DNA of 29,197 nucleotides from Methanothrix sp. (GTDB lineage Archaea; Halobacteriota; Methanosarcinia; Methanotrichales; Methanotrichaceae): the NCBI GenBank assembly GCA_040770465.1, contig JAXGJB010000037.1, positions 1 through 29,197 of the forward strand, in the 5' to 3' direction. A program made the translations under genes and the position numbers. Below are positions 24,749 through 28,660 of this stretch, one piece after another (the first letter of the stretch is position 1; every line of letters starts with the position of its first letter). The notes beneath the pieces are model-generated. The model did not search any database, was not told the DNA's origin, and saw only the letters and a program-made list of their open reading frames with translations.

Positions 24749-25000
24749 ATGATAAAGGTTCATATCGAGAGGCTGGTGCTGGATGGGCTGCCCGTCACCC
24801 GCGCCCAGGGGCCGCTGGTTCAGGCTGCAGTGGAGGCGGAGCTCTCGAGGCTGCTCTCCGAAGGCGGCCTTGGGCATGAGCTGGCAGCTGGAGGAGCGGT
24901 GCCGTCGGTGAGGGCGGATAGTATTAATTCGGCGGGAAAGAGCCCGGCCGAGATCGGCACGCAGATTGCGAAGTCAGTGTACGGAGGAATAGGGAGATGA
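24749..25000 (+). CDS. Small CIS-associated hypothetical protein (83 aa)
   Basis: [12 protein letters not shown]...[10 protein letters not shown]...[15 protein letters not shown]-coupled to the first DUF4157 gene. Confidence 0.75.
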
Positions 25001-26649
25001 GCCAGATGGCGGCCGCTCAGGCCAGAAAGCCGGTGCAAAGCGCTCCGGCATCAACCGGGGGAGTTTTGCAGCGGAGATGCCGCAAGAAGAAGCCGCGGCT
25101 GCAGCGTGCGGCCGCTGGTCCCGCTCGGGAGACCGTGCCGCCAATTGTTCACGAGGTGCTGCGTTCGCCTGGCCAGCCGCTCGATGCGGCGACGCGAGAG
25201 TTTATGGAGCCGCGCTTCAGCCACGATTTCAGCACAGTGCAAACCCACGCCCGTACCCCTCCTGCCCCAGTGCCGGGGCGCTTAGCCGTCGTTGGGCCAT
25301 ACGGTCAGTATGAACACGAGGCAGACACCGTTGCCGGGCAGATAACCCATCTGCCTGACCCCCAATCTAAAGGCCGCTATGACTTCAGCGTTGTCCGCAT
25401 TCACACTGACGACCGGGCCAGTGAAGCAGCCCGGCTCATGAACGCCCACGCCTTCACTGTGGGTCACCATATTGTCTTTGACCCAAACCAGTACGCTCCA
25501 CATACCCCTACCGGACGCCACCTTTTGGCTCACGAATTGACCCACGTAGTCCAGCAGACCGGCGGCAACCCGGCTCAGCCCTCGCTTGTCGCCCAGCGCC
25601 TGACCAGCCCGCGCCTCCAGGGAAGATGGCGCCTGGACCGGGTGACGCCTGACATAGGCCCGGATAACTCTTTCACCAATGAAAATGGAACCACCCAGAG
25701 TATGGCCTTAGTCACTGGTATGGGCGCTACGGTAACCGGAAGTGCCAGAGCCTGGCAAGAGCAGGGCTGGGTGCGGACTGAGGTGGGCGGCGAAGCCCAA
25801 GTCTCTCGCCGACTGAGCATGCATTATATCTTCAGAAACGATGGCCAGGACAGCCACTTTATGCAACTGAGAATTACTGGCGACATCGACGGAACCGCCA
25901 AGGCTGAGGACAGGATGCACGCCAAAGCCTATGGCGTCACCTGGGGCCGAATTGCCGAAAGAACTGCAGCTAATCCAACACCGCCCTACCAGGAACTGTT
26001 TCGGCCCAAAACTGCCGGGGGCGTCTCAGCGGCGACGCTCCGCGGCCTGGGCAGAGTCGAACTTGAAATCCCGGTTGGTGAGGTCGGGTCGGCCCGGCTC
26101 ACCTTCAATATCACAACCGTGGACGAGGGAGACTTTGCCGGTTTTGCCGAACCGCTATCCACCGCCCATGATGTGTCCAACACGGTGGATGAGGTCGATG
26201 TGTTCATCGGTTCACACATCTATGCCGACGCCGACATCGCGTCTTCCTACGCCATAGTCGCCATGCCTGATGAGAACTACGCCCGAGCTGCGGCCCAATT
26301 TTTGCTCCGCTGGGAAAGTCGCCCCTCTCCGGAGCCTAGAACAGGGGAAACGGAACCAGAGCGTTCTGAGGCCACCGTTCCTGGAACTCAGGAACGGCCT
26401 TCACCGGCCACGGGAACATCATCATCGACGGCAGCTCGTAGAAGATACCAATGTACTGCTTGGTGTAGTGAGGTGTGCAATGGCGAAACGGTACGCAGAG
26501 TAGAAGGCAGATCCAACATTAACTGCGGAGAGGCGACGCGAAGAGCCAAGGACGCAGCGCGTAGAGGCTGTTATCCTCGCCATTGCAATTGCAGAGATAC
26601 CGAAGGCTTCAGAGGCGACGGCCATGATTGTGAGAGCCACACCCGATGA
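24997..26649 (+). CDS. DUF4157 (eCIS core) cargo protein 1 with unknown central domain and Cys-rich C-terminus
   Basis: GQPLD...[45 protein letters not shown] (HExxH). Confidence 0.88.
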
Positions 26650-26724
26650 CGGCCACACCAGTCACCCCCAAAAGTCTTAGAAGACCATCGTGGAAGCTGA
26701 CTGCCGCCTGTAAAGAGAATGATT

Positions 26725-26957
26725 ATGGATATTAGGGTGGATATCTAGCGCTAGTGTTGCAAGGGCTCCCTTTGGGGAGACTGGAGTAGCAGTGGAGGCA
26801 AAAATGATGCGATTGCTTGCCGAGGGATGGCTGGGCCAGGAGTTGGCTTCGGGCTAAGCGGTGCCTTCGGTACGGCCCATAAAAATCAGACTTGACGGAT
26901 ATAGCCCGGTCAAGATGGGCGGCGGATAGTTAGATCGGTTATGGTATGAGAAGATGA
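26725..26957 (+). pseudogene. Decayed paralog of the small gene 24749..25000
   Basis: 26792-26875 translates VEAKMMRLLAEGWLGQELASG*AVPSVR versus [28 protein letters not shown] (20/28 identical). Start reads MDIRVDI*R/LVLQGLP. Stops at 26746 and 26855 plus frameshifts. Confidence 0.8.
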
Positions 26958-28660
26958 GCCAGATGGCAGCTGCTCAAGCCAGAAAGCCGGTGCAAAGCGC
27001 TCCGGCATCAACGGGGGGAGTTTTGCAGCGGAAATGCCGCAAGAAGAAGCCGCTGCTGCAGCGTTCAGCCGCTGGCTCTGTTCGGGTGACCGTGCCGCCC
27101 ATCGTCCACGAGGTGCTCCGCCTGCCAGGGCAGCCGCTTGACCAAGAGACGCGAGCCTTCATGGAGCCGCGATTTGGGCATGACTTCAGCCGTGTGCGGG
27201 TGCACACGGACGCCAGGGCGGCGGAGTCGGCGCGGGCGGTGAATGCACTCGCATATACGGTGGGGAAGGATGTAGTCTTTGGGACAGGAAAATATACGCC
27301 TGAGACGAGCAAGGGGCAACGACTACTGGCACATGAGCTGACACACGTTGTGCAACAGCAGCCTGGCAGCAATAGTCTGCAAAGCAGTCTTCCTATCTAT
27401 AAAAAAGAGAACGTCTATGACCGCGAAGCTGACCAGGTTGCCCACCAAGTGATGTATATAAATACAGAAGGAGTGCCTCACATAAGCTCTATTCCAGAAA
27501 CGGTTCAGCGCGCCTGCGGCCCGGTGGCAATTGACGAGCCCACGGGCTGCACGCCCTTTGACAGCGATGTGAGCGGCTCCAGGTACTTATTCAATGTCAA
27601 TTGTGATGAATTTGCGCGCGGAAATGAAGAAGACTTGAGAATTGATGCGCGCCGCATAGAGTCAGGCGAGACGGTTGAGATTCACGGGCTTGCCAGCATC
27701 GATGGGAATCCCACGTTCAATCTACATCTTTCATGCGCCCGAGCTTTGCGAGCAAAGGCGGTCATCGAGGCCGCGCTGGCTGAGCGTGGCGTCTCGGCCA
27801 CCATCTTGGTTTTCAATCACGGAGGGACCATAGGAGAAGCAACACAGCAGCGCAGCGTCATTGTTTCAAGAACAACTCCCCAGCCAGCTGAGCGTACCGT
27901 CTGTGGACCTGACGCAACAAACTGGTTTATTCGGCAAGTAAATGCCGCAAAAACGGATGCGACGATTCTTGCCCTGCAAGCCAGACTGGCAGGGGCAGAG
28001 AGAGTCGCCCGTAGGTATGGTTTCTCGGCAGAGGCCATCGCTGAGGGCGCAGTGGCGCGTCGGGTTCTAGCTGAAGAAGCACGCGCCGGATCGCCCACCC
28101 GTACAGCTGAAGCTAGTTCACAACTTGCTGCCTCCGTACCAGGGCAGCAGGCTTTTTCGAGGGCGTTGGTCGCTGCTACTGTGCCCATTGTCGGCGCTCC
28201 TGAGGCCCTGGTGCTGGCAGCGGTTCGCGGCGCTGCGCTCACCTGGAAGGGACTCGTTGAGACGGGCGCGAAATACGACTTCAAGAACGATTCAAGAACC
28301 ATGCAGTCTCCGACTTCGGAGCACTGCCCAATTAATTGTGCCAACACCATCACTTTGTGTCCCAGTTCTGTATCAGACTGCTTCGTCGCAGATGTTCCTG
28401 GCAACCTGTTTTATGCTCATATTGGGCGCTTTGTCGGATGGACTGAACTGGCACTGAAGCTCGGATCGCAGTTTGCCCAGCTTGACTCCAACGCCAGATG
28501 GGATCCTCCAGAAGACACACGCATGATCAATCTGGGTTTTGCCCTGCCGGATCCACTAAACCGTTCTGATTTATGCTCTATAATCAATGCCAACCGGTCG
28601 ATCTTCACACCGCGAGAATGCGCCAATTGCGATGAAGAAACGACGGCAGCGGTTGTATAG
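26954..28660 (+). CDS. DUF4157 cargo protein 2: DUF4157 + OmpA-like + Ntox44-like toxin domain
   Basis: [34 protein letters not shown]...NLHLSCARA (OmpA-like); WKGLVETGAKYDFK...DVPGNLFYAHIG..VG...GSQFAQ...WDPPED..MINLG (Ntox44-like). Confidence 0.85.
   Translation: MSQMAAAQARKPVQSAPASTGGVLQRKCRKKKPLLQRSAAGSVRVTVPPIVHEVLRLPGQPLDQETRAFMEPRFGHDFSRVRVHTDARAAESARAVNALAYTVGKDVVFGTGKYTPETSKGQRLLAHELTHVVQQQPGSNSLQSSLPIYKKENVYDREADQVAHQVMYINTEGVPHISSIPETVQRACGPVAIDEPTGCTPFDSDVSGSRYLFNVNCDEFARGNEEDLRIDARRIESGETVEIHGLASIDGNPTFNLHLSCARALRAKAVIEAALAERGVSATILVFNHGGTIGEATQQRSVIVSRTTPQPAERTVCGPDATNWFIRQVNAAKTDATILALQARLAGAERVARRYGFSAEAIAEGAVARRVLAEEARAGSPTRTAEASSQLAASVPGQQAFSRALVAATVPIVGAPEALVLAAVRGAALTWKGLVETGAKYDFKNDSRTMQSPTSEHCPINCANTITLCPSSVSDCFVADVPGNLFYAHIGRFVGWTELALKLGSQFAQLDSNARWDPPEDTRMINLGFALPDPLNRSDLCSIINANRSIFTPRECANCDEETTAAVV

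Follow-up and report, generated by a model that had tools for sequence, protein, structure and literature searches.

The closest described relatives of the cargo proteins considered here are Cgo1 and Cgo2 of AlgoCIS, a contractile injection system (CIS) of Algoriphagus machipongonensis. In the accessible part of a preprint on this system (bioRxiv 10.64898/2026.05.27.728243), loading of both cargos is reported to require their N-terminal domain and Alg15, while the DUF4157 domain is dispensable, and the authors describe the loading sequences as similar among cargos within a system, without conservation from one system to another. For the Photorhabdus virulence cassettes (PVC), the accessible text of PMC11495950 describes signal peptides of 50–70 disordered residues that depend on Pvc15; there, signal peptides of PVC and of the antifeeding prophage (Afp) load the tube with the help of an AAA+ ATPase, and are transferable to foreign proteins. 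Archaea are included among the PVC-metallopeptidase polymorphic toxins in the consulted portion of Zhang et al. (2012; PMC3482391), and in Halogeometricum borinquense a CIS similar to the type VI secretion system encodes DUF4157 proteins in the middle of its cluster, five of which are secreted in a sheath-dependent manner; the authors of that work call methanogen CIS unexplored (PMC11566945, as far as its accessible text goes). Mechanistically, the selection and loading of cargo is the chief open question about extracellular contractile injection systems (eCIS), and is key to their re-use as protein-delivery tools. Here I describe an eCIS locus on a contig of 29,197 nucleotides from a Methanothrix genome (JAXGJB010000037.1, contig C37, analysed at its full length and hereafter referred to as the window), whose cargo genes share a conserved N-terminal peptide.

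Four open reading frames (ORFs) on the + strand of the window, starting at 24997, 26954, 28667 and 29031, directly follow the genes for a Pvc15-like AAA+ ATPase and for a protein of 83 amino acids, and all four begin with this peptide (hereafter referred to as the leader). Because the N-terminal domain of AlgoCIS cargos and the PVC signal peptides are needed for loading, the 46-residue leader is, by analogy, probably the tube-loading (packaging) signal of this archaeal eCIS. It corresponds to codons 1–46 of cargo 1 (24997..25134, + strand) and of cargo 2 (26954..27091, + strand). The original prediction started from 26 identical N-terminal residues in these two proteins, and the translations confirm them. 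DNA alignment likewise reproduces the 6 nucleotide differences reported for the first 111 nucleotides, the four within codons 1–26 being all synonymous (4.0 synonymous and 0 non-synonymous differences by the NG86 method); the remaining two produce R27K and R34L, in the eleven residues after the 26. Homology between the two genes at the DNA level starts ∼11 nucleotides before the ATG (repeat D2). The constrained part of the leader is however not the stretch of 26 identical residues, but residues 22–37, GVLQRKCRKKKPLLQR in cargo 2, with the pattern G-x-LQRK-C...KKK-x-LQR. This core is encoded at 25060–25107 in cargo 1 and at 27017–27064 in cargo 2 (codons 22–37 in both).

From Met1, the leader runs for 46 residues up to the folded domain, and includes 10 K/R and no D/E, for a net charge of +10. 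An AlphaFold2 (AF2) model of cargo 2, based on a 111-sequence alignment, contains no secondary structure in residues 1–47, with a predicted local distance difference test score (pLDDT) of 56–72, followed by a helix at residues 49–56 and then by the DUF4157 fold, at a pLDDT of 97–98. As the model shows a structured N-terminal extension of DUF4157 after the leader, the leader proper was defined as residues 1–46. On direct reading of its sequence, the peptide is hydrophilic and basic over its whole length, with no hydrophobic stretch or core and no RR motif followed by one, and it is therefore neither a Sec nor a Tat signal. Neither the leader alone nor a leader of the four-cysteine type described below gave a significant match in Pfam or NCBIfam.

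I used a leader-only hidden Markov model (HMM), built from 8 leaders that include those of cargo 1 and cargo 2 themselves, to scan the genome. Exactly four ORFs were returned, all on C37: cargo 1 (E = 6.7e-28), cargo 2 (E = 8.9e-28), ORF3 (E = 2.9e-7) and the frame holding ORF4 (E = 3.4e-5). The variants that had been noticed at 28667 and 29031 therefore recur far beyond chance, with the qualification that ORF4 runs off the contig and that ORF3 is a truncated cargo remnant. In translation, ORF3 (28667..28987, + strand, 106 amino acids) consists of a diverged leader and the first DUF4157 strand, then a stop, and covers only positions 1–26 of the 79-position PF13699 model (22.5 bits; PF13699 is eCIS_core, formerly DUF4157, with a gathering score of 22 bits as cut-off). 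A search for orphan effectors, with a single sequence and with leader HMMs against the six-frame translation of all 66 contigs of the assembly (94.85% complete), found no copy of the leader outside C37.

A word search with residues 1–46 identified six further database proteins, with a leader identity of 71–95%; their C-termini differ, and a YkuD domain is found in one. Compared to cargo 2, these proteins keep 29–36 of the 37 residues at positions 1–37, only 3–5 of 9 in the linker at positions 38–46, 23–32 of 34 at positions 47–80, and 35–43 of 55 in the domain core. The N-terminus thus shows a conserved, variable, conserved pattern.

I then collected N-termini from 76 loci of metagenome collections and 67 loci of reference-genome collections (143 in total), from which 272 unique N-termini were obtained, each with 40 or more residues upstream. 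These loci were retrieved by patterns in this leader, or in the start or N-terminal extension of DUF4157, and the counts describe that subfamily only. A four-cysteine CxC...CxxC pattern is present in 165 of the 272, and CxxC in 214. The motif [LIVM]Q[RK] occurs at least once in 245 N-termini and at least twice in 186, and in 172 of the 245 its last copy lies 24–26 residues before the G of GQPLD. Across 111 non-redundant N-termini, conserved residues are (in cargo 2 numbering) L24 in 93 sequences, Q25 in 95, R26 in 104, C28 in 93, L35 in 96, Q36 in 105 and R37 in 98, while residues 1–21 are not conserved and are lineage-specific. The median net charge across the family is only +3. The core found in the window is a shortened form of a LQRK-(CxCG...CxxC)-KK-LQR motif, which precedes DUF4157 at a fixed distance from the domain. 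Judging from record titles, loci with this motif span about ten phyla, with Acidobacteriota, Chloroflexota, Verrucomicrobiota, Planctomycetota, Proteobacteria, Gemmatimonadota, Deinococcota, Cyanobacteria and Actinobacteria represented alongside Methanosarcinales-type archaea. In the archaeal group the leaders are mostly 45–49 residues long (18 of 20 aligned, the other two being given as 40 and 48) and read LQRKCDxCRKKKPLLQR; the window's leader has lost three more residues, and has kept one cysteine.

Of 41 related genomes searched, only 8 contained DUF4157. The DUF4157 genes of four congeneric genomes (G007, G012, G013 and G015; loci L002–L004, L006, L009–L011 and L014) possess different, longer N-termini, which share other motifs (RPFAP..., QPKLxLGPxGDRYEQEADRVA, an acidic stretch and one LQRK) in place of the short leader. 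Outside any eCIS locus, at positions 1021–3032 of L024, a homologous gene split by a frameshift shares 82% identity with cargo 2 over residues 46–568. Its N-terminus is much longer and different, although RRSCPKCRKK...LQMK is still found before VPPIVHEVL; in this case the same cargo body follows another leader. The database protein P0005 (500 amino acids, from a 2.2 kb contig) is nearly identical to cargo 2, with V13A as its one leader substitution; past residue ∼399 its C-terminal sequence departs from that of cargo 2 in what looks like a frameshift.

A leader-only profile was also compared to 1.84 billion representative proteins, which gave 189 matches at E ≤ 1e-3; 146 new proteins were examined among the 150 listed. 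Among these listed matches, 127 of the 146 proteins include a DUF4157-like match, and the other 19 comprise 14 fragments of at most 121 residues, 3 long repetitive proteins with a spurious internal match, and 2 proteins with a vestigial domain. In 105 of the 146 listed proteins, the best leader match begins within the first five residues, and DUF4157 follows it by 1–6 residues in 100 of the 127. Such a close and constant association, together with the fixed spacing of the second LQR from the domain, raises the question of whether the leader could serve the DUF4157 zincin itself, as a pro-peptide, an inhibitor or a substrate segment, with the LQR motifs acting as docking or cleavage sites for the “releasing peptidase”. 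Autoproteolytic release by the PVC-metallopeptidase domain was proposed by Zhang et al. (2012; PMC3482391, in its accessible portion), and such a role would be compatible with loading. I nonetheless consider it unlikely, since cargo 4 and the database protein P0076 keep the leader without the HExxH core, since AF2 assigns no regular structure to residues 1–47, and since in AlgoCIS loading survives the deletion of DUF4157, but not that of the N-terminal domain (bioRxiv 10.64898/2026.05.27.728243, accessible part). The persistence of the leader without the peptidase core in cargo 4 and P0076 was counted in favour of a loading signal.

The assignment for cargo 4 depends on a second contig. Its 5′ end (ORF4, 29031..29195, + strand) encodes a diverged leader, MDQKAFISAQKQVQSSAPMMGGILQRKYDKCRK..., and the contig end cuts the gene. 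The gene probably continues across the assembly gap in a 5′-open ORF at the start of contig C7 (P0013; L165, G000:C7, 2–610), whose first residues resemble the first DUF4157 strand, and which lacks HExxH. P0076, of 245 amino acids, matches ORF4 (E = 2e-7) with its first part and this C7 ORF (E = 8e-4) with the part that follows. C37 and C7 share no overlapping bases, and the proposed join therefore rests on synteny and on P0076. Cargo 4 thus probably retains its leader and what is left of the first DUF4157 strand, but no peptidase core.

The near-identity of the two full-length cargo leaders calls for a separate explanation. The proportion of synonymous differences (pS) between the genes of cargo 1 and 2 is 0.149 over codons 1–37, compared to 0.705 over codons 47–80 (Fisher p = 5e-5) and 0.86 in the domain core. 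The leader DNA of the two genes therefore shares a far more recent ancestry than the rest, and by this measure the near-identity is in part the product of recent gene conversion or cassette recombination, on top of selection. The original prediction had named recent gene conversion, with dN/dS near 1 across homologues, as what would speak against a function. Conversion is indeed seen (pS of 0.15 against 0.70), yet three orthologous pairs of leaders, from different samples, show a pS of 0.41–0.49, similar to that of neighbouring codons, and a ratio of non-synonymous to synonymous proportions (pN/pS) of 0.17–0.28, far from 1. As judged from these ratios, the leader core is under purifying selection and is not neutral.

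The duplication that produced cargo 1 and cargo 2 left a further trace. The intact gene for the 83-amino-acid protein (24749..25000, + strand) is located between the ATPase and cargo 1, its stop codon overlapping the start of cargo 1 (ATGA). A decayed copy of this gene, identified by alignment to 24749–25000, precedes cargo 2 (∼26725..26953, 229 nucleotides, + strand), with a stop at codon 8 and a 16-nucleotide deletion; the matching segment, at 26783–26920 (E = 3.9e-6), includes an internal TAA. The duplicated unit therefore consisted of the small gene, the leader and the cargo, and within this unit the small gene has decayed while the adjoining leader is still 95% identical.

One could argue from this that the similarity of the leaders has no function of its own, and is a by-product of duplication and gene conversion, the 5′ end of the gene serving as a homology arm for swaps of toxin cassettes. 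The synonymous divergence of the leader, about five times below that of the flanking codons, would agree with this, as would the duplication of the whole unit and the truncated remnant ORF3; the same pattern is also found in a pair of paralogues of L100 (pS of 0.19 against 0.53), and in 8 of 242 within-locus pairs of paralogues from 59 loci the leader pS is less than half of the domain pS. The pattern is unusual for the family, with a median identity over the 242 pairs of 0.49 for the leader and 0.65 for the domain. A by-product would, however, be at odds with the retention of the core motif in 93–105 of 111 diverse sequences, with the low pN/pS of orthologous leaders at normal pS, and with the decay of the 83-amino-acid gene copy next to a leader that was preserved, and the linker beside the leader is free to vary, with its 3–5 of 9 residues kept. 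I therefore regard this explanation as very unlikely. It is highly improbable that the basic cluster functions inside the target cell instead, for example by resembling a nuclear localisation signal or by binding nucleic acids or membranes. RKKKP is a dense basic patch similar to a nuclear localisation signal, but the cargo domains of the closest relatives (OmpA, peptidase M23 and YkuD) point to bacterial cell envelopes, and a median family charge of only +3 means that high charge is not the conserved feature.

To come back to the leader as a packaging signal, the context agrees with what was originally predicted: it is N-terminal, basic and predicted to be unstructured, and it is present on all four cargos encoded after the ATPase. 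That prediction is partly supported, with two corrections: the near-identity of the two leaders is partly due to gene conversion, and the deep conservation resides in residues 22–37, not in the first 21. Several observations weigh against the packaging interpretation. Its functional component is drawn wholly from analogy with bacterial systems, and the sampling described above is confined to loci retrieved through the leader or its adjoining domain. The predicted disorder is moderate, the leader pLDDT of 56–72 comparing with a criterion of below 40 used for PVC signal peptides (PMC11495950, accessible text). Among the 146 listed matches, the leader was found on no protein without DUF4157 or a vestige of it, so it could serve the domain and not the loader. 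The DUF4157 genes of the four same-genus genomes do not have the short leader. Within the family, leaders of paralogues from one locus generally resemble each other less than their domains do, and the striking leader identity between cargo 1 and cargo 2 is therefore atypical. Finally, the leader core is conserved across about ten phyla, whereas the loading sequences of AlgoCIS are described as not conserved between systems in the accessible part of that preprint.

If the leader is a packaging signal, it would be recognised in its unfolded state, in the producer cell, by the AAA+ ATPase, which is the presumed loader of the cargo, possibly with the help of the 83-amino-acid protein. The ATPase would then feed the effector attached to the leader into the lumen of the tube during assembly, and the variable residues 1–21 and the 9-residue linker may act mainly as spacers, or for lineage-specific tuning. 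A complex prediction for leader residues 1–47 and the full ATPase, both as alignments and run without controls, gave a score of 0.00 and provides no evidence either way.

A broader proposal, which I put forward tentatively and regard as doubtful, is that the two LQR motifs and the basic stretch between them (mostly with a four-cysteine knuckle) form a universal recognition element of DUF4157-type eCIS, kept at a constant spacing ahead of DUF4157 and read by the Pvc15-like ATPase, by the 83-amino-acid protein, or by both. In that case cargo addressing would rest on a defined motif, from Acidobacteriota to methanogenic archaea, rather than on disorder particular to each system alone; a single leader design might serve many systems, and the minimal motif would be defined by the archaeal version, in which only one cysteine is left. 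Should the motif and the 83-amino-acid protein be a recognition pair, loading signals could be designed rationally instead of being copied for each system.

The 83-amino-acid protein has no match in Pfam or NCBIfam. Homologues of its gene were found, as 85 six-frame ORFs across the 143 loci, at the same position: the gap between the ATPase and the first cargo is usually 200–300 nucleotides, and holds the homologue. One locus possesses two intact copies, each in front of a cargo gene, and the gene also adjoins the long-form DUF4157 genes of related genomes. AF2 predicts two helices, with a pLDDT of 84; compared to the PDB, this model gave no fold match at E ≤ 0.001, and a search of a structure atlas returned only unnamed clusters. 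The protein is a candidate cargo adaptor or chaperone.

Both full-length cargos possess the HExxH zincin motif (HELTH). Cargo 1 (24997..26649, + strand, 550 amino acids) consists of the leader, a DUF4157 domain with an insertion after its first strand, and a C-terminal region of 355 amino acids with a cysteine-rich end, for which no significant Pfam or NCBIfam match was found. Its PF13699 match (E = 1.1e-30, 106 bits) covers residues 128–190, with an additional N-terminal fragment at residues 61–84. The domain as a whole (residues 61–190, 25177–25566) is interrupted after the first strand by about 45 residues with a G..YEHEAD..A motif, and a second strand, YDFSVVRIH, follows the insertion. I considered whether this split domain could be a recombination scar, which is ruled out by the presence of the same insertion in P0008 and P0011. 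One gene each of L100 and L125 also shows a split PF13699 match like that of cargo 1, and the split domain is, from these comparisons, a subtype and not a local accident. Cargo 2 (26954..28660, + strand, 568 amino acids) combines the leader and DUF4157 (PF13699, E = 7.2e-35, 119.5 bits, residues 61–138) with a middle region without significant Pfam match and an Ntox44 toxin domain (PF15607, E = 3.3e-8, residues 431–531).

This is the architecture of polymorphic toxins, in which the leader and DUF4157 are conserved and the C-termini cannot be aligned (alignment A2). The C-terminal domains found on the leader/DUF4157 module include Ntox44, YkuD, OmpA, M23 and C2. In the closest relatives (L097, L100, L125 and P0011), the cargo C-termini include OmpA, peptidase M23, YkuD and C2. 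As several such domains act on, or bind to, the cell walls of bacteria, bacteria may be the targets of this archaeal system.

The eCIS operon begins at 17124 on the + strand. Its first structural block (17124..22613), identified by Pfam matches, encodes the sheath (17124–18680), a gp19-type tube protein (18688–19209), a second tube-like protein (19220–19963), a 453-amino-acid protein without Pfam or NCBIfam match (19960–21321) and a Pvc16_N cap/terminator protein (21318–22613), all on the + strand. In related loci the slot between the tube-like gene and Pvc16 holds genes of variable length (349–620 amino acids). This slot presumably matches the position of the tube-length, tape-measure-like proteins of other CIS. 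The block is followed by the Pvc15-like AAA+ ATPase (22610..24727, + strand, 705 amino acids), with an N-terminal winged-helix domain (PF22977, E = 1.3e-20) and a C-terminal AAA domain (PF00004, E = 3e-27). Its identity to 45 aligned sequences from other loci is 42–63%, and 65 of the 83 loci with enough upstream DNA have a homologous ATPase ORF whose end lies less than 2.5 kb before their first DUF4157 gene.

The second half of the operon is located at the start of C7, and encodes a tube-like protein, a 373-amino-acid protein, the spike, a DUF4280 protein, gp25 and Baseplate_J. This remainder spans C7:550–14764 and also includes DUF6519. The cargo array is therefore placed in the middle of the operon, and the contig is broken inside the array. 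The same order of structural genes is found in Methanotrichaceae and Methanosarcinales metagenome-assembled genomes (MAGs; loci L097, L100 and L125), namely sheath, tube, tube-like, unknown, Pvc16, ATPase, small gene, 3–4 DUF4157 genes, tube-like, 373-amino-acid gene, spike and gp25. The 3–4 DUF4157 genes of these loci, between the ATPase and the spike and baseplate genes, all carry the leader. The assembly, of 2.54 Mb, encodes the alpha subunit of methyl-coenzyme M reductase (mcrA), and the nearest leader-bearing loci among reference genomes are those of Methanotrichaceae and Methanosarcinales MAGs; these two observations identify the host as a methanogenic (or methane-metabolising) archaeon.

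How does this locus compare to known systems? The design in which a leader, DUF4157 and a toxin domain make up the cargo is already known, and a methanogen example closest to Cgo1 and Cgo2 is added here. By their published description (PMC8894135, as far as accessible), these proteins possess a disordered N-terminal domain, DUF4157 and a variable C-terminal domain, and are encoded inside the CIS cluster; their N-terminal domains are similar among the cargos of one system, and a Pvc15-type AAA+ ATPase is involved. Unlike AlgoCIS, the system described here belongs to a methanogenic archaeon, counts four leader-bearing genes instead of two, and is described from its sequence. The signals of PVC and Afp, likened here by the accessible part of their description, resemble the leader in being N-terminal, about 50 residues long and charged; they are disordered, a property predicted only moderately for the leader, and the systems differ in that the cargo array of the window lies mid-operon. 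With the haloarchaeal CIS, this locus shares an archaeal host and DUF4157 proteins encoded mid-cluster; that system belongs to another archaeal class and has a cell-bound mode of action, and no leader is described in the accessible text of PMC11566945.

The accessible portion of Zhang et al. (2012; PMC3482391) describes the peptidase domain, and does not mention the leader, the LQR/cysteine motif or the 83-amino-acid gene; the motif and this gene are likewise unmentioned in the accessible portions of Geller (2021) and Danov (2024). Full-text motif searches, whose coverage excludes subscription journals and supplements, returned no paper. Within the literature searched, the cross-phylum LQRK-Cys4-KK-LQR motif at fixed spacing and its 83-amino-acid companion gene therefore appear not to be in print. 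Compared to the view that loading sequences are specific to each system, the alignments suggest that they are conserved between systems within the large DUF4157 subfamily sampled here.

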